From Candidatus Magasanikiibacteriota bacterium (GTDB taxonomy: Bacteria; Patescibacteriota; Patescibacteriia; Magasanikbacterales; GWA2-37-8): a stretch of DNA of 64,000 nucleotides. Each line of letters begins with the position of its first letter. Position 1 is the stretch's first letter. The DNA lies in contig CAWDHY010000002.1 in the NCBI GenBank assembly GCA_963802255.1, forward strand, positions 183,480-247,479, in the 5' to 3' direction. This document shows positions 3,292-58,587 of the stretch, piece by piece. The notes below the pieces were generated by a model. That model was not told the DNA's origin, made no database searches, and worked only from the letters and a program-made list of their open reading frames with translations. The position numbers and the translations under genes are program-made.

Positions 3292-4197
3292 ATGTATTCT
3301 GAAATAGCATCCAACAAACGCAAATCCATTCTGCTGGCCATGCTTTTTATCGCGATGATTATTTTACTCGGCTGGATTTTCGACCAAGTCTATGGCGAAG
3401 GCAGAACATATACCGGCATTACAATCGCCATATTATTTTCACTCGGCATGACAGCCATCTCATATTTTTCAGGTGATAAAATTGCTTTGTCGGCTACCGG
3501 CGCCAAACCGATCTCTCATGACGAAAATAAATACGTATTTCACCTTGTGGAAAATCTTTGCATTTCCGCGGGTGTTCCTATGCCAAAAATATATTTAATT
3601 GAAGACCCGGCCATCAACGCTTTTGCCACAGGCCGAGACCCAAAAAATGCTTCCATTGCCGTCACTCGCGGCGCGGTTGAAAAATTATCTAACGAAGAAC
3701 TTGAGGGCGTGCTTGCTCATGAGCTGTCACATGTAAAAAATTACGATATCCGTTTTATGATGCTGGTCGCGGTGATGGTTGGTTCAATAACTATTCTGGC
3801 TAATTTTATGTTGCGTTCCGGAGGGCTAGTCCGTGGCGGAAAGAACAGCAACCGCGAAGGAGGCTCGCAACTTTTTGCAATTCTGATGATTGTCGGTATT
3901 GTCCTTGCCATTCTTTCGCCATTTATCGCCGAACTTATCAAATTGGCAATTTCCCGCAAACGCGAATATTTGGCCGACGCTTCCGCCGCTTTACTCACCC
4001 GCTACCCGGATGGCTTGGCAAATGCATTGGAAAAAATTGCGACGGAAAATATCCCAATGCGCAAAGCATCCACGGCTACTGCACATTTGTTTATTTCCAG
4101 TCCTTTCAATGGTGGCCGTAAAAAATTTGCTTCGTTTTTTTCCACTCACCCGCCGGTTGAAGATAGAATAAAAAAGTTAAGAACAATGGGGGTGTAG
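3292..4197 (+). CDS. htpX: M48 family zinc metalloprotease (HtpX-like)
   Basis: HELSHVKNYD HExxH motif, multiple TM segments, C-terminal FSTHPPVEDRI motif. Confidence 0.8.
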   Translation: MYSEIASNKRKSILLAMLFIAMIILLGWIFDQVYGEGRTYTGITIAILFSLGMTAISYFSGDKIALSATGAKPISHDENKYVFHLVENLCISAGVPMPKIYLIEDPAINAFATGRDPKNASIAVTRGAVEKLSNEELEGVLAHELSHVKNYDIRFMMLVAVMVGSITILANFMLRSGGLVRGGKNSNREGGSQLFAILMIVGIVLAILSPFIAELIKLAISRKREYLADASAALLTRYPDGLANALEKIATENIPMRKASTATAHLFISSPFNGGRKKFASFFSTHPPVEDRIKKLRTMGV

Positions 4198-4228
4198 GTA
4201 TAGAAATCAAAAGAAACTCAAAAAACAA

Positions 4229-4249
4229 GAGCCGCTCCGAGAGCGGCTC
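4229..4249. terminator. GC hairpin gagccgctc/gagcggctc between convergent htpX and the 4281-4508 gene
   Basis: Near-perfect inverted repeat between two converging transcription units; no strong T-tract. Confidence 0.45.
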
Positions 4250-4280: not shown

Positions 4281-4508
4281 TCATTTTCTCGATGAAATTT
4301 CATCCACCAGCCGGCGCTCTTCGGGGTTCAGCACCACTTCTTCTTGTTCGTGGCTAAAATCGTCTTCGAGCAAAAACTGCACTGCTTCCGGATGCCACGA
4401 ATCCCTAGCGCCTTCAACTCCTCCCCTTCTGCGGCTTCTCCCGCCATCTGACGAGATGCCGTCAAATCTTGGTTGGTAGAGATCCTCGCTTCTCGCCCTC
4501 TTTCTCAT
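4281..4508 (-). CDS. small Arg-rich hypothetical protein (75 aa) encoded in a GC-rich island
   Basis: ORF preceded by a strong SD (aaggagggaaaATG) and a TTGACA-N17-TAAAAT promoter at 4552-4580; local GC well above the genome background. Confidence 0.45.
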   Translation of the reverse strand: MRKRARSEDLYQPRFDGISSDGGRSRRRGGVEGARDSWHPEAVQFLLEDDFSHEQEEVVLNPEERRLVDEISSRK

Positions 4509-4551
4509 TTTCCCTCCTTTTTCCCCAATTCATTTTGGGAGTGAAAAAATA

Positions 4552-4580
4552 ATTTTATCATAAATACATAAATATGTCAA
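4552..4580 (-). promoter_or_regulatory. sigma70-type promoter (TTGACA N17 TAAAAT) for the GC-rich small gene
   Basis: Consensus -35 with 17-nt spacer and an AT-rich -10 on the minus strand. Confidence 0.5.
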
Positions 4581-4648
4581 TAAAAAACAGGCTTTTCCAG
4601 CCCGTTTTTTAATTTCTTATAAATCTATATTAGTACTTATAGTATCTC

Positions 4649-4981
4649 TCATCTCTTTCTACCACGCGTCACCGGTCCAAAAATCACGTCAAATACCCGT
4701 GCCTTTCGAACTTTTCCATTTTTTGATTTAAGCCATACACTGCCTTCTAAACGGTCTATCTTTGTAACAATGTATTCAAACATTCTCAAATCATCACCGA
4801 GCTTGGCTTTATAAACCATTTTTTCTTTTAGACCGGTATTTTTAAGCCGGTCGGAAATTTTTTGCTTTTTCTCATTTGCTAAGTCCTTTAAGCCCTCGCT
4901 GACTTTGCCAAAAGCATCTGCCCGACGTTTTTGCCACGAGCTGTCTTTATTCCCCGCGCGTAGATGTTTTTTTATTGACAT
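4649..4981 (-). CDS. hypothetical basic protein (110 aa)
   Basis: Intact ORF with native AT-rich composition, immediately downstream of the phosphohexomutase gene. Confidence 0.5.
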   Translation of the reverse strand: MSIKKHLRAGNKDSSWQKRRADAFGKVSEGLKDLANEKKQKISDRLKNTGLKEKMVYKAKLGDDLRMFEYIVTKIDRLEGSVWLKSKNGKVRKARVFDVIFGPVTRGRKR

Positions 4982-4985
4982 ATAA

Positions 4986-6350
4986 TTATAAATTAATTAC
5001 ACCGCTTATTTCTTTTGTTTTTTTCTCCATCAAATCTTTTGACCGCGCTTCCAAATTCAGACGCAACAATGATTCCGTGTTGCTTGCCCTGACATTAAAC
5101 CAAAAATCAGAATAAGTAAAAGTCAAGCCGTCCAACTCGTTCAATTTTGCGTCTGCATATTTCTTGCGTAACCTAACGAGCGCCGCTTCTTTATCTGAAA
5201 TCTTAAAATTAATTTCTCCGGAATGAAAATACCTTTTTAACGGCCGCGCGTAATCGGCTAAAGACAGTCCCGTTTCATCCAGCTCTAAAAGCAATTTTAA
5301 AATAACCAGCATCGGGGCTTCATAAACGCCGTGCGGAAACTTCACGAAAAAATGACCGGAAGATTCTCCGCCAAATACTGCCCCGACTTCCAGCATCTGT
5401 TTTTTTATCAGAGAATGCCCCACTCTTGTCACAGACGGCACACCGCCATTTTCCAGAATCATATCTTCAGTGATTTTACCCGGACGAATATCGTAGCAAA
5501 TTGTCGCCCCCGGATAATCACGCAGGAAAATTTTAGCCATAATACCCCGCAAAATAGCCGGTTCTAACAGTTCACCCTCATTATCAATAAAAAATATACG
5601 GTCGCCGTCACCGTCAGTGGCAATGCCTAAATCGGCATTTTCCTGAATTACGCGCTTTTTTAAATCAAAAATATTTTCTTCCTGAAAAGGATCCGCCTGA
5701 TGCGCCGGAAATGTGCCGTCAAGTTCAAAATTCATTTTTACAAGTTCAATTTGCGGCAAATCGGCGAATAATTTTTCCAAATATTGCGCCCCCATGGCAT
5801 TCGCCGGGTCAACGACAATTTTATATTTTAAAATTTTATTTAAATCAACGCCCCGTTCTTCATATTTTACCTGCTCATCCAAAATCCCCTCTTGTTTTTT
5901 CACGCTTCCCTTTACCGGCGCATCCGTAAAGTTGTTGTCTTCAACTAGTTGTTTAAGCTCTTCCATACCACTACCTGCTCCCAGCGACTTGGAATTTTCT
6001 CTCGTAATTTTTATGCCATTATACTCTTTGGGATTATGCGATGCCGAAACCATCAACCCTCCGTCAACACCGAGATGACAAACGGCGAAGTAAAAAGTTG
6101 GAGCTGAAACCAAACCTATATCAATTACGTCGGCCCCCTGATCGGTGAGGCCGCGTATCACGGCATCTTGAAGCGACGGCGAAGACACACGCATGTCCCG
6201 GCCGGCAACTATTATTAATTTTTCTTTTTTTTCTTCACTTTTTCTTAACACGACAAATGCCCGCGCAATTTTGTACGCTAAATCTTCGGTCAGTTCCGCG
6301 CCGTAAATTCCGCGCACGTCATAGGCCTTAAAAATATTCGGAATGCTCAT
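4986..6350 (-). CDS. phosphomannomutase/phosphoglucomutase (alpha-D-phosphohexomutase family)
   Basis: FKAYDVRGIYG N-terminus, active site SASHNPKEYNGIK, metal-binding loop GIATDGDGDR, sugar-binding GGESSGH. Confidence 0.85.
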   Translation of the reverse strand: MSIPNIFKAYDVRGIYGAELTEDLAYKIARAFVVLRKSEEKKEKLIIVAGRDMRVSSPSLQDAVIRGLTDQGADVIDIGLVSAPTFYFAVCHLGVDGGLMVSASHNPKEYNGIKITRENSKSLGAGSGMEELKQLVEDNNFTDAPVKGSVKKQEGILDEQVKYEERGVDLNKILKYKIVVDPANAMGAQYLEKLFADLPQIELVKMNFELDGTFPAHQADPFQEENIFDLKKRVIQENADLGIATDGDGDRIFFIDNEGELLEPAILRGIMAKIFLRDYPGATICYDIRPGKITEDMILENGGVPSVTRVGHSLIKKQMLEVGAVFGGESSGHFFVKFPHGVYEAPMLVILKLLLELDETGLSLADYARPLKRYFHSGEINFKISDKEAALVRLRKKYADAKLNELDGLTFTYSDFWFNVRASNTESLLRLNLEARSKDLMEKKTKEISGVINL

Positions 6351-13324: not shown

Positions 13325-14668
13325 ATGAGCCGTAATAATACAGTATTTGTATGTTCGAATTGCGATGCCCAGTTTCAAAAATGGACGGGTAAATGTTTAG
13401 AATGCGGACAATGGGGCACGATTGATAAAAATCCTGTCAGCATCTCATCAAAAAATGAAAATAAACAAGAATTTGCGCCGGCTAAAATATCTGCACTTTC
13501 AGAAATAAAAAGTGAAAATATAGCACGAACGAAAACAAATATCGGCGAACTGGACCGCGTGCTCGGCGGCGGTCTTGTCCCCGGCTCTCTTATTCTTCTT
13601 GGTGGCGAGCCTGGTATCGGCAAATCAACACTGGCACTTCAACTCGCTGCCATTTTACCGCAGGCCCTTTATTTGTCCGGTGAAGAATCAGCCGAGCAAA
13701 TCAAACTGCGTTCCGATAGATTAAATATAAAATCGCAAAATCTCAAAATCGGCAATGAATCAAATATTGAAACGATTATCGCGACCATAAAAAAGGAACG
13801 GCCGGTTTTAACCGTCGTTGATTCCGTGCAAACCATCTACTCGAACGACTCCGAGGGCGAAGCAGGCAATCTCGCGCAGGTCCGCGCCTGTACCGTAAAA
13901 CTTATGGAACTGGCAAAAAGCGAACGGCTTACAATTGTTCTGGTCGGCCAGGTGACAAAAGAAGGCACGGTCGCCGGTCCAAAGACATTGGAACATCTGG
14001 TGGACACGGTTTTGTATCTTGAAGGCGACCGCTTTCATCAGTTCAGAATTCTGCGCGCCGCTAAAAATCGTTTCGGTTCAACCGATGAAGTCGGTGTTTT
14101 TTCTATGGAAGAAAATGGCTTGCAGGAAGTAAAAAATCCTTCGGCCGCATTTCTGGGCGAACGGGCGGAAAACGCCCCCGGTAATGTCGTGGCATGTTTA
14201 ATGGAAGGCTCGCGTCCCATCCTCTGTGAAGTGCAGGCACTGGTAAGTAAAACGTCTTTTGGCTATCCGGTGCGCAAATCAAGCGGCTTTGATTTAAACA
14301 GATTACATATGCTGGTTGCCGTACTTGAACGCCGTGCCGGATTAACACTTAGTCAATATGACATTCATTTAAATGTGGTCGGCGGACTTTCAGCCGATGA
14401 ACCGGCCGCAGATTTGGCAGCGGCACTGGCCATTGCCAGCGCATATAAAGACAAACCACTTGGTTCGGATATGGCCGCTTTTGGTGAAATTGGGTTATCA
14501 GGCGAAGTACGACCCGTTTCATTTACGGAAAAACGTCTTAAAGAATGTGAACAGCTTGGACTAAAACGGGCACTGACCAATTTGGGGAAAAAAAATGCCG
14601 GACTAAAAATGAAAGTGTTAAAAATAGTGGATATAAAAAATATCCAGGAAATCATAAAACATACATAA
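13325..14668 (+). CDS. radA: DNA repair protein RadA/Sms
   Basis: N-terminal C4 zinc finger (CSNCDAQF...CLECGQWG), Walker A GGEPGIGKST, KNRFG motif, Lon-like C-terminal domain. Confidence 0.9.
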   Translation: MSRNNTVFVCSNCDAQFQKWTGKCLECGQWGTIDKNPVSISSKNENKQEFAPAKISALSEIKSENIARTKTNIGELDRVLGGGLVPGSLILLGGEPGIGKSTLALQLAAILPQALYLSGEESAEQIKLRSDRLNIKSQNLKIGNESNIETIIATIKKERPVLTVVDSVQTIYSNDSEGEAGNLAQVRACTVKLMELAKSERLTIVLVGQVTKEGTVAGPKTLEHLVDTVLYLEGDRFHQFRILRAAKNRFGSTDEVGVFSMEENGLQEVKNPSAAFLGERAENAPGNVVACLMEGSRPILCEVQALVSKTSFGYPVRKSSGFDLNRLHMLVAVLERRAGLTLSQYDIHLNVVGGLSADEPAADLAAALAIASAYKDKPLGSDMAAFGEIGLSGEVRPVSFTEKRLKECEQLGLKRALTNLGKKNAGLKMKVLKIVDIKNIQEIIKHT

Positions 14669-14717: not shown

Positions 14718-14744
14718 ATAAGAGGTTTTGGGAAGTTTTGTGGA

Positions 14745-15183
14745 TCAGTCGGCTGGAGTGGCGTGGTTTTCCGTGTCTGGCGTGAAGTCATCGACCTCGA
14801 TGCACGGATGCTTTATGACCATCAAGGCCAGGTCGTGCTTGAAAGAGTCAATGCCCGGAACGATGTGGTGGAAATCCGGCGATAAGTCGCGCTTCTTTTT
14901 GTTGCGCAACTGCAAAGCTTGGCACTCATATATCGCCTCCAGGTCGCTCAGTCTGCGAAAGACGATCCGCTCGAGTTCCACCTGCATGTCACGGCCGTTG
15001 CGTCCTGCCCTACCAAACGCCAAAACCGTTTTGCCGTTGAGCTTGAGCGGAGTGCAGCGCACCCACAGTGGTCTCATGTCTTGCCCGCCTTTGTGTTGCA
15101 CCATTGCAACCACAAAGTCATTCCCCGCAGGATCGAAAGCGTTCTCCTTTGGCGGTAAACCCGCCCATACTTGTCTGCCCATT
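14745..15183 (-). CDS. hypothetical protein (about 146 aa) in a GC-rich island; likely start MGRQVWAGL
   Basis: Strong SD (aaaggaggagagaagaATG) and promoter TTGACG N17 TATTCT at 15261-15289; the antisense plus-strand ORF is Ser-rich low complexity and was rejected. Confidence 0.5.
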
Positions 15184-15200
15184 CTTCTCTCCTCCTTTAA

Positions 15201-15212
15201 ATGAACGTTCAT
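15201..15212. promoter_or_regulatory. perfect 12-bp palindrome ATGAACGTTCAT between promoter and SD of the GC-rich gene (candidate operator)
   Basis: Self-complementary dodecamer in the 5-prime UTR. Confidence 0.3.
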
Positions 15213-15260
15213 GCTCCTGTCAGTGCAGTACATCCGCACCGACTTGAAAGCACAAAGGAG

Positions 15261-15296: not shown

Positions 15297-17390
15297 CTAT
15301 TCCAGATGGGTGGTTTCGCCCCATTTCGCTATCAAACGGCTAATTATCGGATATTTATCCAAATTTTTTGCGATATAAACAGCCGCTTCCCGTGTTTTCT
15401 TAATAATTTCTTTATCAGTAAGCTTGGCTAATCTCAAATTCATTAAGCCGCTCTGAACAGTTCCGTACACTTCTCCGGGCCCACGGGTCTCCAAATCTTT
15501 TTCCGCAAGTTTAAAACCATCAATATTTTTTTCAAAAAAAGATAGCCGGTCTCTGGTTTTGTCCGAATTTGATCCGGAAAACAGGAAACAATACGACTGA
15601 TAAATAGAACGACCAACACGACCGCGAAATTGATGAAGCTGAGCCAAGCCAAATCTTTCGGCTCCTTCTATCATCATCACGGAAGCATTTGGCACGTCAA
15701 CGCCAACCTCGACCACCGAAGTGGACACCAGAATATCAATTTCTTTTCCTTTAAACTTTTTCATCATCAGTTCTTTTTCAGCCGATTTTAATTTTCCGTG
15801 CAAAAAACCTACGCGTAAATCCGGAAAAATATTTTTTGATAATTTTTCATATTCATTCATCACACTTTTTTTCTCATACTGTGAAGCCGGAAAAAAATCA
15901 TAATTAACCGGCACAAAATCATCCGTCTGCGCGGTTTCAATTAAAGGACAAATCACAAATACCTGTCTTCCGCGCTTCACTTGGCCGCGAATAAATTCAT
16001 ACGCTTTCTCCCGGTTATTAGGATCTACCAATCGGGTGATGATCGGTTTTCGCCCGGCAGGCATTTCATTGATCATGGATAAATCAAGATCCCCGTAAAT
16101 CATTAAAGCCAATGAGCGTGGAATGGGAGTGGCAGTCATGCTTAAATAGTGGGCGGAAATATCAGCGGTCTTGTCCTTGATGGCTTTTCTTTGAGCAACA
16201 CCGAATCTATGCTGTTCATCAACTATTATTAAACCGACATCTTTAAACAAGATTTTTTCCGAAAGCAAAGCATGTGTTCCAATTATAATTTTTATTTTCC
16301 CGCTATTTATCAAATCAGTCATTTTTTTCTTTTTCACCTCTTCTTCCCCAAAAAAAATCTGTGATCTGGTAAAAAGGCCTGTTTTTATCTTAGAGCCTAA
16401 TATTTTTTTGATTGATTCAAAATGCTGACGGGCTAAAATTTCTGTCGGTGCCATTAGCACGGCCTGATACCCGTTCAGCACTGTATTTAGTATGGCGATT
16501 GCTCCCACGATTGTTTTACCCGAGCCAACGTCGCCTGAAAGCAGACGGTTCATTGGCGATTCACTGCCCAAATCTTTTAATATTTCCCAGGCCGAAACCT
16601 TTTGGCTTTTCGTTAGTTTAAACGGCAAATTTTCAACAAGATTTTTAACGGCGCTTTCTTTGAACTCCATGGCAGGCGCTTTGCTTAAAGACAATTCACT
16701 GCGCGTAAGTTCAGCCCTGATATGCAGACGAAATAATTCATTAAATTTCAAGCGGTCAGTGGACTGTTTTAAATCTATTTCATCTTTGGGGAAATGAATA
16801 CCGCGCAATGCGTCTTCAAGCGGAATAAGATCAAAATGATCTAACATCTCATCCGGTAAAAAATCCTTCATACCTTGGATTGCCGGCAATGATTGTGTAA
16901 TTAAAAATCTTAATTGCTTTTGAGTTACACCCTCGGTTGATGGATATATCGGAATAAGCCGCACAATATTAGCCGTCTCCGTATTATTAACTTTTTCATA
17001 CATCGGACTGACAAACTGCGGGCCAAGCATGTCAGCTTTCACTTTACCGGATAAAAAAAGCATGTCTCCAGGTTTTAAATTTTTTGCGATAAACGGCTGA
17101 TTAAACCAGACTACCCGCACACTGCCGCTGTCATCGGTTACCATGGCGTTAGTCACAATTTTTCTGCTGCGAAAACTGCGCCTATTCGCCACAAGTTCAA
17201 GACGTCCGCAGACTGTTATTGAATCACCTTCGCTTATTTTGCCAATCGGCACAATACGACGGTAATCTTCATAGCGGAAAGGATATAAATTCAATAAGTC
17301 ACCTGTATTTCTTATACCAAGACGTCCCAGCCGTCTGGCCAGGGTTGTTCCTACTCGATTGAGTTTTATAATCGGCGTTGATAAATCCAT
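15297..17390 (-). CDS. recG: ATP-dependent DNA helicase RecG
   Basis: Wedge domain, helicase motifs (GDVGSGKT, DEQHRFG, QLHQFRGRVGR), 697 aa. Confidence 0.9.
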   Translation of the reverse strand: MDLSTPIIKLNRVGTTLARRLGRLGIRNTGDLLNLYPFRYEDYRRIVPIGKISEGDSITVCGRLELVANRRSFRSRKIVTNAMVTDDSGSVRVVWFNQPFIAKNLKPGDMLFLSGKVKADMLGPQFVSPMYEKVNNTETANIVRLIPIYPSTEGVTQKQLRFLITQSLPAIQGMKDFLPDEMLDHFDLIPLEDALRGIHFPKDEIDLKQSTDRLKFNELFRLHIRAELTRSELSLSKAPAMEFKESAVKNLVENLPFKLTKSQKVSAWEILKDLGSESPMNRLLSGDVGSGKTIVGAIAILNTVLNGYQAVLMAPTEILARQHFESIKKILGSKIKTGLFTRSQIFFGEEEVKKKKMTDLINSGKIKIIIGTHALLSEKILFKDVGLIIVDEQHRFGVAQRKAIKDKTADISAHYLSMTATPIPRSLALMIYGDLDLSMINEMPAGRKPIITRLVDPNNREKAYEFIRGQVKRGRQVFVICPLIETAQTDDFVPVNYDFFPASQYEKKSVMNEYEKLSKNIFPDLRVGFLHGKLKSAEKELMMKKFKGKEIDILVSTSVVEVGVDVPNASVMMIEGAERFGLAQLHQFRGRVGRSIYQSYCFLFSGSNSDKTRDRLSFFEKNIDGFKLAEKDLETRGPGEVYGTVQSGLMNLRLAKLTDKEIIKKTREAAVYIAKNLDKYPIISRLIAKWGETTHLE

Positions 17391-22971: not shown

Positions 22972-23121
22972 GGGTCAATTTGACATTATTTTAGCTCTCG
23001 GCTAATATAATTGGCATCAAATCACATATATATCTGTAATATAAACTATAGAGCCATTTACAAGCTCTTCCACTCGTAAATGCCCGCATTTGCAGGCATT
23101 CCCGTTCAACTGTATTCGCTT

Positions 23122-25368
23122 ATGAAAACACTTGTAATTGTAGAGTCCCCGGCAAAAGCCAAAACAATATCCAAATTCCTCGGTGGTAAATATGCGGTCA
23201 AATCTTCATTTGGCCATATTCGCGACCTACCAAAACGCGAGCTGGGTATTGATGTTGATAAAAATTTTGAACCCAAATATGTAGTCAGCCGGGACAAAGC
23301 AAAAATAGTCAAAGAATTAAAAACTGCAGCCGCAAAAGTCAAAGAAGTGCTATTTGCAACTGATGAAGACCGTGAAGGAGAAGCTATTTCCTGGCATCTG
23401 GCAAATGTCCTCAACATTGATCCAAATAAGGTCAGCCGCATAGCTTTTCACGAAATCACAAAAGAAGCGATTGAAAAAGCGTTGGAAAACCCGCGCAAGC
23501 TTGATATGAAATTAGTTGATGCCCAGCAAGGCCGTCGTATTCTTGACCGTTTAGTCGGATACAAACTATCCCCTTTTCTATGGCGAAAAGTAGCCAAAGG
23601 ATTATCTGCGGGTCGGGTACAATCGGTAGCTGTTCGTCTTATTGTTGAACGCGAACGCGAAATCAAAGATTTTAAACCGGAAGAGTACTGGTCTGTTGAA
23701 GGAAATTTTTCCGAGGGAAACAGCGATTCATTTATCGCCAAACTTACCACCACGCCCGACGGCAAACTTGATAAAATGGATTTGAAAAATCAATCAGCGG
23801 TTGACGGAATACTTTCAAATCTAAAAAGTGCCACCTATACGATTTCAAATACGGAAGAAAAATTGACTAACCGACAGCCTTCTCCCCCTTTTATTACTTC
23901 CACTCTTCAGCAGGAGGCCAATCATCGCTTGGGTTTTTCCGCCAAGCAAACAATGCGTATCGCTCAACAGTTATATGAAGGCGTAGAACTCGGGCCCGAA
24001 GGATCTGTGGGCTTAATCACCTACATGCGTACCGATTCTACAAACTTATCCGAAAAATTTTTACAAGATGCAAAAACCGCCATCACCGAAGGCTACGGAG
24101 CAAAATTTTATAACGGCGAACCACGGATTTTTAAAACAAAAAATAAAAATGCTCAGGAAGCGCATGAGGCAATCAGACCAACTGAAGCCTCCCGCAATCC
24201 AGATTCCATCGAGACATTTTTAGAGCGCAATCAATATAAATTATACGACTTGATTTGGCGCCGGGCGCTGTCATCGCAGATGGCCGCGGCGAAAGTAAAT
24301 AACGCCGTTATTGATATTGAATCAAACAATAAATATGTTTTCCGCGCAAACGGACAAAATCTTGTTTTTGAAGGATTTTTAAAATTATATCCGGAAAAAA
24401 CTAAAGAAAATTTATTGCCAAAAGTTGAAAATGGCGCTGTGGTAAAATGCGACGAACTTAAACCTGAACAGCATTTTACCGAACCACCGGGAAGATATTC
24501 CGACGCGACATTGGTCAAAGCACTGGAAGAATTCGGCATTGGCCGCCCATCTACTTATGCGCCAACAATCGCCACTATTGAAGACCGCGGCTATGTTATG
24601 CGCGATGAAAAGAAAAAACTTTTTCCACGCGATATCGCCTATTTGGTAAATGACCTGCTGGTCGCTCACTTTCCAAATATTGTCGATTTTAAATTTACGG
24701 CTCAAATGGAAGAAAATCTCGACCAGGTTGCCGAGGGTGAAAAAGAATGGCAACCTGTAATCGCCGAATTTTATGGCCCATTTAAGGATAATCTTGAGCA
24801 AAAAGACAAGGAACTGTCTAAAAAAGAATTAACTGAAGAAAAGACCGATGAAGTATGCGATAAATGTGGATCTCCTATGGTCATACGCGTTGGAAGATTC
24901 GGCAAATTTATGGCTTGTTCCGATTATCCCCAATGCAAAAATACTAAACCACTGCCGGGCGAAGAAGGCGCTGAATCAGCTTCAGTTATTGAAGCAACAA
25001 GTGAAGCATGCGAAAAATGCGGAGCGCCGATGGTAAGAAAAGTCGGGCGTTTTGGGCCGTTTATCAGCTGCAGTGCTTATCCGAAGTGCAAAAATATAAA
25101 AAGTATTGAAATTAAGATAAATCTAAAATGTCCAAAATGCTCCGAAGGGGATGTTATACAACGAAAGACTAAAAGAGGTAAAATATTCTTTGGTTGTAAC
25201 CGTTATCCAAAATGCGATTTTGCCCTTTGGGACAAACCGACCGGAGAAAAATGCCCGGCCTGCGATAGCCCTATGGTCCAAAACAAAAAAGAAGATACAA
25301 TTTGCAGTAACAAAGAATGTCCATCCTCCGGCTCAAAGAAAAAGAAGGATGTTAAAACCAAAAAATAA
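23122..25368 (+). CDS. topA: DNA topoisomerase I with C-terminal Cys4 zinc-ribbon repeats
   Basis: TOPRIM MKTLVIVESPAKAKTI, active-site region, several CxxC..CxxC zinc ribbons at the C-terminus; true start at MKTLVIV rather than the ORF-track 23080. Confidence 0.9.
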   Translation: MKTLVIVESPAKAKTISKFLGGKYAVKSSFGHIRDLPKRELGIDVDKNFEPKYVVSRDKAKIVKELKTAAAKVKEVLFATDEDREGEAISWHLANVLNIDPNKVSRIAFHEITKEAIEKALENPRKLDMKLVDAQQGRRILDRLVGYKLSPFLWRKVAKGLSAGRVQSVAVRLIVEREREIKDFKPEEYWSVEGNFSEGNSDSFIAKLTTTPDGKLDKMDLKNQSAVDGILSNLKSATYTISNTEEKLTNRQPSPPFITSTLQQEANHRLGFSAKQTMRIAQQLYEGVELGPEGSVGLITYMRTDSTNLSEKFLQDAKTAITEGYGAKFYNGEPRIFKTKNKNAQEAHEAIRPTEASRNPDSIETFLERNQYKLYDLIWRRALSSQMAAAKVNNAVIDIESNNKYVFRANGQNLVFEGFLKLYPEKTKENLLPKVENGAVVKCDELKPEQHFTEPPGRYSDATLVKALEEFGIGRPSTYAPTIATIEDRGYVMRDEKKKLFPRDIAYLVNDLLVAHFPNIVDFKFTAQMEENLDQVAEGEKEWQPVIAEFYGPFKDNLEQKDKELSKKELTEEKTDEVCDKCGSPMVIRVGRFGKFMACSDYPQCKNTKPLPGEEGAESASVIEATSEACEKCGAPMVRKVGRFGPFISCSAYPKCKNIKSIEIKINLKCPKCSEGDVIQRKTKRGKIFFGCNRYPKCDFALWDKPTGEKCPACDSPMVQNKKEDTICSNKECPSSGSKKKKDVKTKK

Positions 25369-25377
25369 TTATAAAAA

Positions 25378-25403
25378 CATCCGCTTGAGGGCGGATGTTT
25401 TTA
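25378..25403 (+). terminator. intrinsic terminator for topA (catccgc-ttgagg-gcggatg-ttttt)
   Basis: 7-bp stem followed by a T-tract. Confidence 0.7.
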
Positions 25404-25569
25404 TTGCAGGGGCGAAAGGCGAACCTTAATGCCTTTGGTGATGTTAAGGGCCGATCGCCTCCTGCAAATAATACCTTAGCATAAAAAACTAAAAATATCA
25501 ATGGGCGGCTCCCTCTCAACTACTTGTGTCAATCCTATATTTCGACGCCTAAATTTAAGAAATAAAAAA

Positions 25570-25805
25570 GGGGCCACTCCGAAAAACGATCGGAGGGGCC
25601 CCATACCTGTATCTTGCCGCTAATCTTGTCTGTGACACTGCCCGTCATGTTTTGACAACAACCTGGGAGGGTTTTGACGCGACACTGCCGCTAGCGGTCT
25701 TTTCCGGGCGATTTCTTCCATGACTTCTTCCACGGTCGCCCAGCGCACTCCAACAGGCATGGAGCGCCTTTGTAAAGGAGCGGTACTTGCTCTGACCTGC
25801 TGCAA
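25570..25805 (-). ncRNA. GC-rich transcription unit of about 235 nt bounded by promoter and terminator; candidate small ncRNA, or alternatively a 46-aa small ORF (MPVGVRWATV...)
   Basis: Minus-strand promoter TTGACG N17 TAGACT (25811-25839); terminator ggggccactccg...cggaggggcccc plus T-tract (25563-25604); internal hairpins and direct repeats of GGCAGTGTC and GTCAAAAC; no ORF starts downstream of the predicted transcription start with a good SD. Confidence 0.3.
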
Positions 25806-25810
25806 CAAAT

Positions 25811-25839
25811 AGTCTATCACAGAGCTTTTTTGTCGTCAA
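25811..25839 (-). promoter_or_regulatory. sigma70-type promoter TTGACG N17 TAGACT
   Basis: Hexamers with 17-nt spacing on the minus strand. Confidence 0.45.
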
Positions 25840-26008
25840 GAAAAGCTATAAAAAGCAAAAACCCCGTGTCCAGAGGGCACGGAGTTTTGCAGCACTAAGT
25901 TCTTAACATCACGAAAATACTATAGCACAAATTATCCATCTTGTCAAGTCCGGCAAATAGAGATAGAATAAAAAATGGGCCATATCAGGGCTTTTATTTT
26001 ACAGAACT

Positions 26009-27514
26009 ATGATAAGCCAGATAGTATTACCACAAAAAGTTACACTCGATTCTTTGGTTGATGAGCTAAAGAAATATTGCATAAAATCCGACCTTGAGAT
26101 GGTCCGGATGGCTTATGATTTTGCCGCTGAAGCCCACAAAGGCCAGGTACGCTTTAATGGAGAACCATACATCTCTCATCCGCTCACCGCCGCCTATATT
26201 CTTGCCATGATGCATATTGATATCAACATTATTATCGCGGCTCTTCTTCATGACGTTCCTGAGGATACCGACATTACTTTAGATGCTATTGAAAAAAAGT
26301 TCGGCCGTGACGTGGCCAATATGGCGAGAGGTATAACAAAATTAGGAAAATTGAAATACCGCGGAGTTGAACGCTACTTGGAAAATTTGCGAAAAATGTT
26401 TGTGGCTATGGCCGAAGATATCCGGGTGATGATTATAAAATTTGCCGACCGCATCCACAATCTTCTTACCCTTGAGGCTCAGCCACCTAACAAGCAATAT
26501 CGTATTGCATTGGAGAGCCTGGAGATTTATGCACCAATTGCCAACCGTCTCGGCATGGGAGAATTTAAAGGCATACTTGAGGATCTTTCTTTTCAATATG
26601 TTTTTCCGAAAGAATATGAACGCGTCAAAGAAATTAGCGATGAAACCATTGCCGAAGAAGAGCCTTATTTAGATCAGATAATGGTGGAATCAAAAAAAGA
26701 AATCAGGGATGCCGGCATAAAAATTATTGACATACATGGAAGAAAAAAACGGCTGTATAGCTTATTTCAAAAATTGAAACAAAAAGATTGGGACGTGGAT
26801 CAGATACACGATATTGTAGCCGTGCGTATTTTAGTCCCGGGTATAAGCGATTGCTATGCCGCTCTTGGAATTATTCATAAATTATGGCGCCCTCTTAAGG
26901 GAAGGATAAAGGATTATATTTCACAGCCGAAACCAAACGGATACAAGTCTTTGCATACGACGGTTTTTTGCGACGACGGAAAAGTGGTGGAATTTCAAAT
27001 CCGCACGCCTGAAATGCATGAGGCTGCTGAATTCGGTATTGCCGCGCATTGGCATTATGACGAAAAGAAAGGCCCGCCCCGCGCCATGGCTAAAGACGTT
27101 AGCTGGGCGAAAGAACTGGCGCGCATACAAAAGGAAGTTTTAAACAATCTTTCCGATCTGGATTCATTAAAAATTGATTTCTTTCAGAATCGAATTTTTG
27201 TTTTTACTCCGAATGGAGATGTCATAGACCTGCCGGAAAATGCCACTCCGGTTGATTTTGCATATCATATTCACACTGATATCGGTAACAAATGTAACGG
27301 CGCTCTGGTTAACGAACAGATGGTATCGCTCGACACCGCACTGCGAAGCGGAGACGTCGTTGAGGTGATTGTTGACAAAAACCGCAAGGGCCCAAGCCGC
27401 GATTGGCTAAAATTTGTTAAAACGCATGTGGCAAAATCCCGCATCAGACAATATCTTAATACGCAGAAAAAAAACTGGCTGGCGACAATTTTGCCGATGC
27501 CATTAAAAAAATAA
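26009..27514 (+). CDS. short RelA/SpoT homolog: bifunctional (p)ppGpp hydrolase/synthetase with TGS domain, no ACT/CC domains
   Basis: HD domain (HDVPEDT), synthetase core (RILVPG...YKSLHTTV), TGS segment; only 501 aa. Confidence 0.85.
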   Translation: MISQIVLPQKVTLDSLVDELKKYCIKSDLEMVRMAYDFAAEAHKGQVRFNGEPYISHPLTAAYILAMMHIDINIIIAALLHDVPEDTDITLDAIEKKFGRDVANMARGITKLGKLKYRGVERYLENLRKMFVAMAEDIRVMIIKFADRIHNLLTLEAQPPNKQYRIALESLEIYAPIANRLGMGEFKGILEDLSFQYVFPKEYERVKEISDETIAEEEPYLDQIMVESKKEIRDAGIKIIDIHGRKKRLYSLFQKLKQKDWDVDQIHDIVAVRILVPGISDCYAALGIIHKLWRPLKGRIKDYISQPKPNGYKSLHTTVFCDDGKVVEFQIRTPEMHEAAEFGIAAHWHYDEKKGPPRAMAKDVSWAKELARIQKEVLNNLSDLDSLKIDFFQNRIFVFTPNGDVIDLPENATPVDFAYHIHTDIGNKCNGALVNEQMVSLDTALRSGDVVEVIVDKNRKGPSRDWLKFVKTHVAKSRIRQYLNTQKKNWLATILPMPLKK

Positions 27515-35436: not shown

Positions 35437-36726
35437 TTATATATGATCGTATTCGTGCATAGTTAACTGAGCTTCAAGCTGTTTTGCCGTTTCAATAGCT
35501 ACAGATACAACGATAAGAAGCGATGTGCCGCCGATTGTTAATACTTGTGAACCGCTGACTGAACGAAGTAAGAGCGGTAATACGGCGATTAAGCCCAAAA
35601 AACTGGCGCCGATCAAATTGATACGGCTGACAATCGCCGAAAGATAACCCTCTGTTTCTTTTCCCGGTCTGATACCAGGAACAAATCCGCCGTTTTTCTG
35701 TAAATTCTCCGCAATTTTTTGCGGATGAAAAATGACCGAGGTGTAGAAAAAAGTAAAACCAAAAACCAAAAGGAAGTATGAAATACCGTAAAAAGCCTGA
35801 TTATTAAATAATCTGATTATAAACATGGCAAAATTTTTCAGCCATTCCGCGTTTGCTGATACAAAAAATTGCGCGATCATCGGCGGAATTACCACGAGTG
35901 AGATGGCGAAGATAATCGGGATAACTCCGGCCATATTAACACGGATGGGCAAATGTGTTGATCCGCCTCCAAAAATGCGCGAACCGCGCACTTGCTTGGC
36001 GTAATTGACCGGAATTTGACGCTGACCTTCGCTGATAAAAACCACGCCGACGACAGTCACAAGAGCGATTAAACCAAACATTACAAATGTATAAAAATCG
36101 GCCGCAGTATAGTTTGCAACTGCTTGCCCGATGGTAGACGGCAAGGAGGCCACGATACCGGAAAAGATTAACAATGAAATACCATTACCCACTTTTCTTT
36201 CAGAAATCAATTCACCAATCCAGACAAGAAACATGGTGCCTGCGGTAATACTGACCATTATGGTAAACATATCTAAACCGGTCAAACTTGCAGGAAGAAT
36301 ATCCCGTGATGAATTCGCCAAAAAACGAATCATAGCAAAGGACTGTAAAAACGCGAGCGGAACTGTAAGCCAGCGCGTATACATGTTTATTTTTGCCTGG
36401 CCAGACTCACCTTCTTTTTGCATTTCCTCCAGTTTCGGCACAATCATGGCTAGAAGCTGAAAAATAATTGACGAAGTAATGTATGGAGCAACGCCAAGCA
36501 TTATCAATGAAAAATTCTTTACAGTGCCCCCGGAAAAAACATCGAGCAATTGAAATACTTGCTGACCGGATAAAAATTCACGCAATGCTTGCACATTGAC
36601 GCCTGGCACAGGAATATGCGCCACTAAACGATAAATTACCAAAAGCCCGAGGACAATAAAAACATTTTTTCTTATATCCTTAATTTTCCAGACTTTTTGA
36701 ATTTTTTCCCACATATATTGTATCAA
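35437..36726 (-). CDS. secY: preprotein translocase subunit SecY
   Basis: Ten TM segments, 429 aa, position after rplO. Confidence 0.9.
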   Translation of the reverse strand: MIQYMWEKIQKVWKIKDIRKNVFIVLGLLVIYRLVAHIPVPGVNVQALREFLSGQQVFQLLDVFSGGTVKNFSLIMLGVAPYITSSIIFQLLAMIVPKLEEMQKEGESGQAKINMYTRWLTVPLAFLQSFAMIRFLANSSRDILPASLTGLDMFTIMVSITAGTMFLVWIGELISERKVGNGISLLIFSGIVASLPSTIGQAVANYTAADFYTFVMFGLIALVTVVGVVFISEGQRQIPVNYAKQVRGSRIFGGGSTHLPIRVNMAGVIPIIFAISLVVIPPMIAQFFVSANAEWLKNFAMFIIRLFNNQAFYGISYFLLVFGFTFFYTSVIFHPQKIAENLQKNGGFVPGIRPGKETEGYLSAIVSRINLIGASFLGLIAVLPLLLRSVSGSQVLTIGGTSLLIVVSVAIETAKQLEAQLTMHEYDHI

Positions 36727-54402: not shown

Positions 54403-54431
54403 AAAAACGGGCCAGAACGGCCCGTTTTTTT
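54403..54431. terminator. bidirectional intrinsic terminator aaaaacgggcc-agaa-cggcccgttttttt
   Basis: Perfect stem with flanking A- and T-tracts. Confidence 0.75.
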
Positions 54432-56637
54432 ATAAATCACCAACATCTCTTAAAAAACTTCCCGGACTTATTTTTATTTGCGAATCTTCGTCTATATATT
54501 CTACTTCGTCTGAATCATCGAGCGACAAACTCCGCCCATTGCCGAGAAGTGATTTATCGTCCAAAAGTTCACTGTCAATTTCTTCCAAAAATATACTTGG
54601 TCCTGGCAATGCGTCGCCCCAGCCCGAGGCTGGCCGGCCTTGGGCCGGGCCGTTCTCCATCGGATAAGTTAAAAATAAATTTTTCTTGGCGCGGGTGATA
54701 GCGACATAAAATAATCGCCGTTCTTCTTCAATCCCGCCCCGTTCACTTGCCGCCCTGCTATTTGGGAACGCTCCGCTCGCCAGGTTGATCATAAATACGG
54801 CCGACCATTCCAGCCCTTTCGCCTGATGCACGGTAGAAAGTACTATTTTTTTGTCTGTCGGCACTTTGTTATTTTGATTTTTTTGACCATAATCCTCCGT
54901 CAAATTCGCTTCAGCTAAAAACTCGGCTAAATCATTAAACTTCCCGGCATAAATCACCAATTGTTCAACATCGCCACGGCGGTCCCGGCTGTCAAAATAT
55001 TCAGCCTCCAGATAGTCATTATAGCCGGTCTCCAAAATCGTCCGCACCAGTTCAGCCGGGTGGCTGGTGCCGATACCAAGAAGCTCATCCCATATCCGCG
55101 TAAAATTTTGCCAGCCAACTTTTGCTTTTTCGCCCAACATATCAAGACCGATTGATTTGATTTCAGATACATTTGCCGCACCGCGAACCGCCTGATAAAT
55201 TTTTTGCGCCGCCACCGGCCCAATTCCTTCTTCTTTTAACAATATGCGCATCCACGCTGCTTCATCAGCCAGATTACTTAGCAAACGCAAATAAGCAAGC
55301 ACATCTTTCACGTGCGCCCGCTCAAAAAAGCGCACACCACCGCGATAGTCATAGGCAATGCCGGATTGCGCCAGTGCCATTTCCAATTGTTGAGAATGGT
55401 GTGAAGCACGAAACAAAACGGCGATTTCTTTAGGCGCGACACCTCCGTCTAAAATTTCAGAAATTTTTCTTACCACAAAATCCGCTTCTGCTGCCTGGTC
55501 TGCTTGCGGTCTTAACTCCGGTTTTACTCCGCTTTGAAAAATTGTTTTTAAATTTTTCTGATATTGATTTATGTTATTAGCGATGACATCGTTAGCTAGC
55601 GACAAAATCTCCTGGCTGGAACGATAATTTGTTTCCAGTTTAAAAATTTTAGCATCAGGATAATCTTTCCCAAAGCTCAAAATATTTTCAATGTCAGCGG
55701 CGCGAAAAGAATAGATGCTCTGCGCGTCGTCGCCTACCGCTAACAGGTTGCCGTGTATTGATGCCAATTTTTTAATAATGCTTGCCTGAAGGCGGTTGGT
55801 ATCCTGATATTCGTCAACTAAAATGTATTTGAATTGATTCGCGTATTTGGCCAAAATCATATTGTCATCCTGAACTTGTTTCAGGATCCTTTTTTCTGTT
55901 TTATCAGATGCTGAAATAAATTCAGCATGACCTGGACGCTGTAAAAGCAAAAGTAAATTCGCCAATAAATCATCAAAATCCATTGAATTCGACGCGCGCT
56001 TTCTTTTTTCATAATCACCGGCAATCTGTTTTATTTCTTCAGACCATCTGAACCAGCTCGGATATTTTATATCTAAAACATCTTCAATTGTTGTTTCAGC
56101 ATTACGGGCATAGCTTATTATGCCTTTTATCACGCCAGCCGAAGGAAATTTTTGTCCGCCTGTTTCCAAATTTAAATTTTTCAAGCTAAGTTTTACCAAC
56201 GCTTCGCTGTCATCGGCGTCTAAAATTGTAAAATTTTGTTGATAACCGATTACGCCGGAATATTTTCGTAAAATTTTGTAGGCAATATGATGAAAAGTTC
56301 CGGCCCAAGGCAAAACGTTCATCGTTTTGTCATTCCGACCGACCCGCCAGCTGGCGGGGAGCGGAGGAATCCCTTCGGAAACGCCGGAGGGATCCCTCGG
56401 CTTCGCTCGGGATGACAATTCGGCGACGCGTTTTATCATCTCCCCTGCCGCCTTGTTGGTAAATGTAACCAACAAAATATTTTCTGGGGATACGCCCTGC
56501 TCCAAAAGATAAGCCACGCGATAAGTGATAGTCCGCGTCTTGCCCGAGCCGGCGCCGGCCAATACTAAACAAGGGCCATCGCCTGTGAGGACGACGGCCA
56601 ATTGTTCCTGATTAAGTTCTGATGAAAAATCAGTCAT
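54430..56637 (-). CDS. UvrD/PcrA-type superfamily 1 DNA helicase carrying a 30-aa in-frame insertion from a palindromic repeat element
   Basis: Motifs AGAGSGKT, TFTNKAA, TFH, DEYQDTN, VGDDAQSIY; the GC-rich insert encodes RAKPRDPSGVSEGIPPLPASWRVGRNDKTM between motifs I and Ia. Confidence 0.85.
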   Translation of the reverse strand: MTDFSSELNQEQLAVVLTGDGPCLVLAGAGSGKTRTITYRVAYLLEQGVSPENILLVTFTNKAAGEMIKRVAELSSRAKPRDPSGVSEGIPPLPASWRVGRNDKTMNVLPWAGTFHHIAYKILRKYSGVIGYQQNFTILDADDSEALVKLSLKNLNLETGGQKFPSAGVIKGIISYARNAETTIEDVLDIKYPSWFRWSEEIKQIAGDYEKRKRASNSMDFDDLLANLLLLLQRPGHAEFISASDKTEKRILKQVQDDNMILAKYANQFKYILVDEYQDTNRLQASIIKKLASIHGNLLAVGDDAQSIYSFRAADIENILSFGKDYPDAKIFKLETNYRSSQEILSLANDVIANNINQYQKNLKTIFQSGVKPELRPQADQAAEADFVVRKISEILDGGVAPKEIAVLFRASHHSQQLEMALAQSGIAYDYRGGVRFFERAHVKDVLAYLRLLSNLADEAAWMRILLKEEGIGPVAAQKIYQAVRGAANVSEIKSIGLDMLGEKAKVGWQNFTRIWDELLGIGTSHPAELVRTILETGYNDYLEAEYFDSRDRRGDVEQLVIYAGKFNDLAEFLAEANLTEDYGQKNQNNKVPTDKKIVLSTVHQAKGLEWSAVFMINLASGAFPNSRAASERGGIEEERRLFYVAITRAKKNLFLTYPMENGPAQGRPASGWGDALPGPSIFLEEIDSELLDDKSLLGNGRSLSLDDSDEVEYIDEDSQIKISPGSFLRDVGDL
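56329..56418. repeat. GC-rich palindromic repeat element of about 90 bp (copy U) inserted in frame in uvrD/pcrA; RPE-like
   Basis: Terminal inverted repeats TTGTCATTC ... GGATGACAA; internal palindromes cccgccagctggcggg and gagggatccctc; about 75% identical to the copy in tgt. Confidence 0.6.
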
Positions 56638-57366: not shown

Positions 57367-58587
57367 ATGCCAGCATTTTTTGAACTAATTCACGAAGACA
57401 AAAAAACCGGCGCGCGCGCCGGAATTATACATACCGACCACGGGGACATACCAACCCCTTGTTTTATGCCGGTCGGAACTCAGGCGACTGTTAAAACTCT
57501 GGACCAAACCGATTTAGAAAAACTGGACGCGCCAATCATCCTCGGAAATACTTACCATCTTCATCTGCGCCCGGGTGAGGACCTCATCCATGAGCTCGGC
57601 GGACTGCATGAATTTATGAATTGGAAACATCCAATTCTAACTGACTCCGGAGGCTTCCAGGTTTTTAGCCTGGGATTGCAAAAAGAAGGAAAAGGACAAG
57701 GAGGACTAGTGGAAATTGATGAAGATGGCGTGGCTTTCAAATCGCATATCGACGGCTCCACGCATCGTTTCACTCCGGAATCAGCCATCCAAATTCAACA
57801 CAAACTCGGCGCGGATATAATTATGGCCTTTGATGAATGCACGCCTGACAGCGCGCCATACGAATATACAAAAGAAGCAATGGAGCGGACACATCGCTGG
57901 GCCGAGAGATGCTTGGCCGAACATGAAAAGCTCGGCCGTGTCATTCTGAATGGAGCGAAGCGAAGTGAAGAATCCCTTGCGGCTCGCAATAAGGGATCCT
58001 TCGCTAACGCTCAGGATGACAAACCGCATAACCAATTTCTTTTTGGCATCATTCAAGGCGCCAAACACAAAGATCTGCGCGAAGAGTCGGCCCGATATAT
58101 TTCTTCGCTTGATTTTGACGGCATCGCTATCGGCGGAGAATCAATCGGATATAATATGGAGGCGACCGCAGAAATAATGAACTGGTTAAAACCGATTTTG
58201 CCGAAAGACAAACCGCGCTACACAATGGGCGTCGGACTTTCCCCAAGTGATTTGCTGAAAGTAGTGTCAAATGGCGCGGATATGTTTGACTGTGTGGCGC
58301 CGACCCGCCTAGCCCGCCACGGTATGCTGTTTATCAAAAATGATGAAGAAAGAATAAATATTAATAACGCGCAATTTGCCAAAGATTCATCACCGATTGA
58401 TAAAAATTGCGATTGTCCGGTATGCGCAAAATATTCTCGCGCCTATATTCACCATCTATTCAATGCCGGGGAAATGACCGGCCAGCGTCTGGCAACAATT
58501 CACAACATTCACTTTATGCTGAATCTGATGCGTGAAGCGCGACGGGCTATTTTGGAAGACAAATTTGAAAAAATGATAAAATTATAA
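57367..58587 (+). CDS. tgt: queuine tRNA-ribosyltransferase (tRNA-guanine transglycosylase) with an about 28-aa in-frame insertion from the palindromic repeat element
   Basis: TIM-barrel motifs (DSGGFQ, zinc site CDCPVC...H); the GC-rich insert encodes GRVILNGAKRSEESLAARNKGSFANAQDDKPHN before the conserved QFLFGIIQG. Confidence 0.85.
   Translation: MPAFFELIHEDKKTGARAGIIHTDHGDIPTPCFMPVGTQATVKTLDQTDLEKLDAPIILGNTYHLHLRPGEDLIHELGGLHEFMNWKHPILTDSGGFQVFSLGLQKEGKGQGGLVEIDEDGVAFKSHIDGSTHRFTPESAIQIQHKLGADIIMAFDECTPDSAPYEYTKEAMERTHRWAERCLAEHEKLGRVILNGAKRSEESLAARNKGSFANAQDDKPHNQFLFGIIQGAKHKDLREESARYISSLDFDGIAIGGESIGYNMEATAEIMNWLKPILPKDKPRYTMGVGLSPSDLLKVVSNGADMFDCVAPTRLARHGMLFIKNDEERININNAQFAKDSSPIDKNCDCPVCAKYSRAYIHHLFNAGEMTGQRLATIHNIHFMLNLMREARRAILEDKFEKMIKL
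57940..58022. repeat. GC-rich palindromic repeat element of about 83 bp (copy T) inserted in frame in tgt; same family as the copy in uvrD
   Basis: Shares gtcattc..gaatccctt..agggatcc..cgctc.ggatgacaa blocks with copy U; internal stem gaatccctt / aagggatcc. Confidence 0.6.

Follow-up and report, generated by a model that had tools for sequence, protein, structure and literature searches.

A probable clade-restricted small-protein gene convergent with htpX in Candidatus Magasanikbacteria, distinct from the palindromic elements in uvrD and tgt

Introduction

Bacteria of the Candidate Phyla Radiation (CPR) have reduced genomes with many unassigned small genes, and hypothetical proteins of narrow distribution are common among their predicted products. 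Small disordered bacterial regulators that fold on binding include FlgM, the anti-sigma-28 factor, and RbpA, which binds RNA polymerase, and the Rickettsia palindromic elements are the textbook analogue of in-frame palindromic insertions. Here we describe a small gene (4281..4508, minus strand) that encodes an Arg-rich protein of 75 amino acids (aa) and is convergent with htpX in a Candidatus Magasanikiibacteriota genome (assembly GCA_963802255.1, contig CAWDHY010000002.1, positions 183,480 to 247,479; this whole stretch of 64,000 nucleotides is hereafter the window). An earlier note made from the sequence had suggested that the gene could be a related or ancestral variant of a palindromic element present in uvrD and tgt. 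Our analysis indicates, with a probability of roughly 80%, that the locus is a conserved, clade-restricted small-protein gene that is not related to the palindromic elements. The gene is vertically inherited at one fixed locus and confined to one subclade of Candidatus Magasanikbacteria (Patescibacteria/CPR), and the protein family that it defines was previously undescribed.

The closest described objects differ in how much they share with this gene. With the orphan small-protein genes of CPR/Patescibacteria it has in common the length of the product (67-86 aa across the family), the lack of a Pfam or NCBIfam family, a narrow clade, fast evolution, predicted disorder and annotation as 'hypothetical protein'; it differs from most CPR orphan open reading frames (ORFs) in its demonstrable purifying selection, strictly conserved position and three linear motifs, and in having its own conserved consensus promoter, Shine-Dalgarno (SD) sequence and terminator. 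The likeness to FlgM and RbpA lies in the similar size, the predicted disorder of the free state and a conserved C-terminal helix as the most likely docking element, to which RbpA adds a basic segment ahead of the helix, whereas the small protein shows no sequence similarity to any entry of Pfam or the Protein Data Bank (PDB) and has no sigma factor or flagellar gene context. Between in-frame palindromic elements and the gene, the sole likenesses are a local rise in G+C content and two short words; unlike the elements, the gene has no terminal inverted repeats, no palindromic core and no significant alignment, does not lie in a host gene, occurs as a single copy at a syntenic locus that is fixed, and has expression signals of its own. 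Altogether, the product is a lineage-specific small disordered protein, a familiar kind of object from an undescribed family.

Results and Discussion

The family emerged only from the later homology searches. The first word-indexed search with the single protein returned nothing other than the query itself, and tblastn on loci fetched via HtpX gave weak matches at the same position and in the same orientation in L006 (41% identity), L001 (33%) and L003 (33%), each of which corresponded to an ORF of 67-83 aa. An exhaustive phmmer search of 1.84 billion representatives found three true relatives besides the query (E-values from 3.8e-10 to 6.7e-4), along with two repetitive false positives, and a profile search of 5.8 billion clusters recovered 15 proteins of 67-86 aa with E-values from 1e-27 to 7e-10, which puts the family at about 16 protein clusters among 5.8 billion. 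None of these 15 relatives carries a Pfam domain and their naming never goes beyond 'hypothetical protein'. No relatives of the small protein were detected by tblastn against phage and plasmid collections, a subgroup-alignment search of metagenome contigs from the Joint Genome Institute (JGI) gave no confirmed relative, and no literature on the family was found in our searches.

Three motifs run through the family, (V)YxPRxDG, RDSWHPE(A) and PELxxEExRL(V/I)xxI, and in the family alignment Y11, R14 and L60 never vary, and S37, W38, P40 and E64 almost never do. The protein evolves fast, with identities of 31-53% compared with 79-89% for HtpX and 59-81% for the protein of 110 aa encoded upstream. 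The proportion of synonymous differences exceeded that of nonsynonymous differences (pS > pN) in all 21 orthologue pairs, and in the nine pairs in which the synonymous rate (dS) was unsaturated the ratio of the nonsynonymous rate to it (dN/dS) ranged from 0.17 to 0.41, as in L006/L081 with a dS of 0.29 and a dN of 0.09. The sense frame 0 is the sole frame of the six that is free of stops in all seven loci checked, the others being interrupted in most of them, and the motif amino acids are conserved while their codons differ among orthologues. Because the frame is open, the SD sequence and ATG are conserved, dN/dS stays below 0.5 and the motifs are kept with differing codons, the sequence comparisons support the region as a genuine protein-coding gene under purifying selection and not a chance ORF, a small RNA or a remnant.

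The signals around the coding sequence point in the same direction, and the consensus promoter, the AGGAGG ribosome-binding sequence and the Arg-rich ORF that the earlier note had described are all present. The coding sequence (75 aa, MRKRARSEDLYQPRFDGISSDGGRSRRRGGVEGARDSWHPEAVQFLLEDDFSHEQEEVVLNPEERRLVDEISSRK) begins with ATG at 4508 and ends at 4281, and 12 of the 75 residues (16%) are Arg. Its promoter is of the sigma-70 type (4552..4580, minus strand), with the -35 box TTGACA at 4580-4575, a 17-nt spacer, an extended -10 TG at 4560-4559 and the -10 box TAAAAT at 4557-4552, and matches the consensus at 11 of 12 positions. A scan of 1.2 kb gave two promoter-like sites where 2.4 would be expected, and a single 11/12 match could be due to chance; the promoter is taken as real because TTGAC(A/G)-17-TAnnnT stands at the same place in 10 of 10 orthologous loci. 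A 5' untranslated leader of about 37 nt (4509..4545, minus strand), counted from the inferred transcription start, contains a small CCCAA/TTGGG hairpin and the SD sequence AGGAGG at 4518-4513, and GGAGG precedes the ATG in all orthologues.

Downstream of the gene lies an intrinsic terminator (4219..4249, minus strand) with a G+C-rich stem of 9 bp, a 3-nt loop and a T-tract; its hairpin, at 4249-4229, reads GAGCCGCTC-TCG-GAGCGGCTC and is followed by TTGTTTTTTG. This terminator had been regarded as shared with htpX. The hairpin does stand 31 nt beyond the htpX stop codon, but a U-tract follows it only in the direction of the small gene, for which alone it is a canonical terminator. At the other end, a terminator-like hairpin with a T-run (ACGGGCT-GGAAA-AGCCTGT; 4582..4605, minus strand), read from the sequence and by an inverted-repeat search and absent from the terminator-scan list, closes the upstream gene directly ahead of the small-gene promoter, so that the small gene would form its own transcription unit. 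The strong promoter and the terminator delimit a transcript of about 320 nt. Overall, these signals describe what is, as predicted, a self-contained, monocistronic expression unit, and they suggest that it is abundantly expressed.

The position of the gene is conserved too. Ten species-level loci had a visible context (the window, L001, L003, L006, L081, L082/83, L084, L085, L086/87 and L088/89), and in all ten the small gene directly follows the homologue of the 110-aa gene on the same strand and converges on htpX-lemA. The general order is PGM, in some loci an ORF of the DUF559 type, a gene for a protein of about 103-121 aa with a helix and a Tudor-like domain, and the small gene, convergent with htpX-lemA. 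Each of these loci keeps the same succession of a terminator hairpin, TTGAC(A/G)-17-TAnnnT, GGAGG-ATG, the ORF and a second terminator hairpin, and the sequence of the latter (GAGCCGCTC...GAGCGGCTC) is largely conserved across orthologues, with one compensatory-type change. A scan of all fetched loci with the family hidden Markov model (HMM) found one copy per positive locus and none elsewhere. The term 'cassette' that had been applied to the gene suggests mobility, but the gene keeps the same syntenic place wherever it occurs, and the phage and plasmid collections gave no relatives.

In the window, htpX (profile match to Peptidase_M48) occupies 3292-4197, with a product whose nearest relatives point to Candidatus Magasanikbacteria as the source of the DNA, and the upstream gene of 110 aa lies at 4649..4981 on the minus strand; it precedes the small gene in every locus that has the small gene and is not part of its transcription unit. 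In three of the ten loci (L081, L085 and L086), a single unrelated ORF separates the small gene from htpX. These interposed ORFs were considered as paralogues of the small gene and rejected, as they proved unrelated on checking.

The composition and the predicted structure of the protein offer a view of how it might act. A basic N-terminal half rich in Lys and Arg is followed by an acidic C-terminal half rich in Asp and Glu, the net charge being +2 to +11 before the conserved Trp and -4 to -8 after it in 14 of 15 members. The AlphaFold2 model, built with the 15-sequence alignment, has a mean predicted local distance difference test (pLDDT) score of 65.7 and no tertiary fold, with one confident C-terminal helix at residues 62-74 (pLDDT above 90; the block 61-70 averages 93). 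On this prediction, the amphipathic helix at the C-terminus is the one ordered part of an otherwise disordered protein. Neither a signal peptide nor a Cys or His metal motif was found in it. The window protein and all 15 members gave no match in Pfam at E-values up to 1, the window protein and the few members scanned gave none in NCBIfam, PHROGs and PADLOC at E-values of 0.1 or below, and a profile search of PDB sequences gave none at E-values up to 10.

On these features, the small protein would probably act stoichiometrically, as a fold-upon-binding ligand or adaptor. The parts that would dock onto a structured partner are the C-terminal helix and the two motifs YxPR and SWHPE, whereas nucleic acid or an acidic surface may be what the basic N-terminal half touches. 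The upstream 110-aa protein is a speculative candidate partner only: its predicted structure comprises a long N-terminal helix and a Tudor/SH3-like beta-barrel, in a model of moderate confidence only (pLDDT 66, with four of the five models scoring about 51). Pairs of Tudor domains and Arg-rich peptides, such as the SMN Tudor domain with the RG-rich Sm tails, are relevant only to this speculative link, and they differ from the present case in that the neighbour, as modelled with that moderate confidence, is only 7-16% identical to Tudor domains in sequence. A clade-specific module of the two proteins, in which the Tudor-like barrel would read the conserved Arg-rich/YxPR/SWHPE segment of the small protein and the target of the pair would be RNA polymerase, the ribosome or nucleic acid, is an unlikely extension of the proposal, for which an analogy is offered by CarD and RbpA, which act together in Actinobacteria. 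If true, this would be a case of Tudor-peptide recognition by a pair of bacterial proteins, and the reduced gene-expression machinery of the CPR would gain a new accessory factor.

Several observations weigh against the reading of the locus as a conserved gene for a binding protein. In L002, whose HtpX is 86% identical, the 110-aa gene abuts htpX without the small gene, and in L004 and L005 the 110-aa gene is present with other DNA at the small-gene site and without a detectable homologue; the gene is dispensable in close relatives. The lineage of L001, L088 and P0012 has no central SWHPE motif, although the other two motifs are kept. No homology to a characterised protein or a solved structure was found, and the mode of binding proposed above, deduced from composition and from a single-chain AlphaFold model on 15 sequences, is tentative and perhaps somewhat on the doubtful side. 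Moreover, transcription and translation of the gene are predictions from sequence signals, and the raised G+C content and third-position G+C content (GC3) of all orthologues are not explained by a small-protein gene.

Loss of the SWHPE motif in the L001 lineage through a compensated frameshift was also considered and rejected, since the other frames fail to match the family HMM.

The G+C content deserves separate attention, as the coding sequence had been called GC-rich. The ORF has 53% G+C against 42.6% for the window, which bears this out, but 53% is reached by 8-10% of equal-length pieces of long ORFs and many other 150-nt windows exceed 55%; the enrichment is modest in the window and becomes clear only once the orthologues are considered. 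Measured on the orthologue coordinates (4281-4508 in the window, 5001-5204 in L003, 5001-5243 in L082, and others), GC3 was 0.53-0.75 and lay above the local gene background everywhere, by up to +0.40 (0.71 against 0.31±0.06 in L003, 0.69 against 0.39 in L082 and 0.56 against 0.33 in L081). Because the effect sits at the third position, amino-acid composition cannot alone explain it, and expression-linked codon bias is not an obvious cause, since tuf and fusA in the window have a GC3 of only 0.45-0.46. RNA structure is not favoured as the cause either, as the alignment fold revealed no conserved structure that would explain it and showed clear conservation of structure in the transcript at the terminator hairpin only.

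This raised GC3 in all orthologues, a hint of selection at the nucleotide level, and the promoter and terminator that bound a transcript of about 320 nt are what could be expected of a non-coding or dual-function small RNA in which the ORF is incidental. Such an RNA is very unlikely here. The transcript folds with a z of -0.66, 23 of 100 shuffles folding as well, RNAalifold adds little to the terminator stem (two short weak helices in the body, and a covariation term of +0.37), and Rfam gave no match at the gathering score, the best E-value being 0.13. For a dual role, no base-pairing target was found. The conserved SD sequence and ATG, the open frame, the motifs with differing codons and the dN/dS below 0.5 are properties of a protein-coding gene instead.

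It is likewise highly improbable that the small protein and the upstream 110-aa protein form a toxin-antitoxin-like pair, with the small protein as the antitoxin (or the toxin). In favour of such a pair, the two genes stand side by side in all examined loci that have the small gene, and predicted disorder with a C-terminal binding helix is a property of many antitoxins. Nevertheless, a terminator and a separate promoter stand between the genes, which are not co-transcribed on this layout, and L002, L004 and L005 have the 110-aa gene but lack the small one. Besides, no family of toxins or antitoxins was matched in PADLOC, Pfam or PHROG, the chromosomal locus is syntenic, has a single copy and is neither patchy nor mobile, and the 110-aa protein is well conserved (59-81% identity).

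A spurious ORF, or the decaying remnant of a larger gene, would fit the self-match of the word-indexed search and a low-complexity, charged protein that has been lost in some relatives, yet we consider it extremely improbable in view of 15 independent homologues of the same length with the same start context and stop, the purifying selection and the conservation of promoter, SD sequence and terminator. The homologues are not assembly duplicates of one population either, given that their DNA is saturated at synonymous sites.

The comparison with the palindromic elements involved two copies, one of 88 nt at 56329-56416 within uvrD (54430-56637, minus strand) and one of 81 nt at 57940-58020 within tgt (57367-58587, plus strand). 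Both have the form GTCATTC...GAATCCCT...GGGATCC...GGATGAC, and the coding genes that host them are conserved and still open. A search of the 64-kb window, which was the scope of the search for further copies in the source genome, found the GTCATTC...GGATGAC pattern only in these two places. The two copies resemble in-frame palindromic insertions such as the Rickettsia palindromic elements.

The pairwise alignments that the earlier note had proposed as a check gave best Smith-Waterman local scores of 18 and 20 between the small-gene region and the two copies, against 36 between the copies themselves. These are chance-level values: of 1000 dinucleotide shuffles, 426 scored as high as the first value and 190 as high as the second (mean scores of 17.4 and 17.5), and the small-gene region was equalled by 61 of the 417 control windows. 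The GTCATTC...GGATGAC termini are absent from 4281-4580, where GTCATTC occurs on neither strand, and a BLAST comparison with the remainder of the window gave matches to A+T-rich promoter-like words only, none of them in the ORF. The blocks said to be reminiscent of the palindromic core are indeed present in the ORF, with GAATCCCT at 4400-4407 and GAGATCCTCGCTTCTCGC at 4479-4496, but their resemblance does not rise above chance and they are ordinary codons: GAATCCCT is the reverse complement of AGG GAT TC(G), which encodes R-D-S of the conserved RDSWHPE motif and for which orthologues use other codons (CGT GAT TCT in L006), and the 18-mer GAGATCCTCGCTTCTCGC encodes residues 5-10 of the non-conserved N-terminus. 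The blocks are 71 nt apart in the small gene and about 14-16 nt apart in the elements. In addition, the gene lies between genes and not inside a host coding sequence, with one copy at one position in each of the ten loci.

In spite of the octamer GAATCCCT, the GATCC-containing block found in both and a G+C content above that of the surroundings, the small gene is almost certainly not a degenerate or ancestral variant of the uvrD/tgt element, given the chance-level alignment, the missing termini, the different spacing, blocks whose DNA is not conserved in orthologues and a fixed, single-copy locus. The earlier note would have given up its proposal if the region showed no significant similarity to the elements and the ORF no conservation anywhere; the similarity is indeed lacking, and the ORF is conserved. 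Overall, the small gene is neither mobile nor related to palindromic insertion elements, and its transcript is not a structured RNA.

The reading of the locus as a clade-restricted small-protein gene removes a false lead, since the gene is no third or ancestral copy of the palindromic element. It also places what had looked like an orphan ORF in a defined family of small proteins, which is marked by clear motifs, a promoter architecture that is conserved and a partner gene that is fixed. In the reduced genomes of the CPR, a small gene that is under selection and carries consensus expression signals is a reasonable candidate for a lineage-specific accessory factor, although on present evidence its product remains one of the many hypothetical proteins of narrow distribution in this group.

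Additional observations were made around the locus. ORFs of the DUF559/MTES_1575 family (endonuclease-like) lie between PGM and the 110-aa gene in L002 (5308-5781), L082 (4172-4531), L083 (1122-1541) and L084 (2152-2571), and their variable presence indicates that small insertions are tolerated around the locus, even with the small gene always in the same position. At the small-gene position of L005, an ORF of 67 aa (4977-5180, minus strand) is convergent with htpX and has a strong SD sequence and a similar basic-then-acidic layout. Its assignment as a diverged homologue of the family was not supported (hhalign probability of 1%); this ORF could be an analogue, or a homologue too far diverged to be recognised.

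Elsewhere in the window, a G+C-rich island at 25371-25912 (minus strand) lies between topA (23080-25368) and an ORF starting at 26009. The small gene had been said to follow the same pattern as the other islands. This island does have a promoter (TTGACA-17-TATAGT with TG, 25947-25919) and a terminator of 14 bp (25404-25371), but a common pattern does not imply the same object: it contains no convincing ORF, only short overlapping ones of at most 66 aa, and folds at -199 kcal/mol with a z of -7.15, compared with -0.66 for the small gene, internal terminator-like hairpins at 25878-25861 and 25603-25591 contributing to the fold score. It gave no Rfam match; one or several unclassified structured RNAs may be encoded here, which sets the island apart from the small gene.

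A second G+C-rich stretch (14728-15239, up to 61% in 150 nt) is situated between a radA-like gene (13325-14668) and recG (15297-17390). It holds long overlapping ORFs on both strands, of 158 aa on the plus and 164 aa on the minus strand, with a promoter-like site at 15289-15261 (minus strand); the minus-strand ORF, which was the one scanned, had no Pfam match, and the stretch had no Rfam match. Finally, an identical stretch of 22 nt, TCCAAAAATGCGCGAACCGCGC, occurs in two unrelated essential genes, secY (35968-35999) and rplN, encoding L14 (40449-40480). It contains a hairpin-forming GCGCG-AAC-CGCGC, and by eye both copies appear to encode RGSRIFG with identical codons; the sharing of this stretch is probably coincidental.
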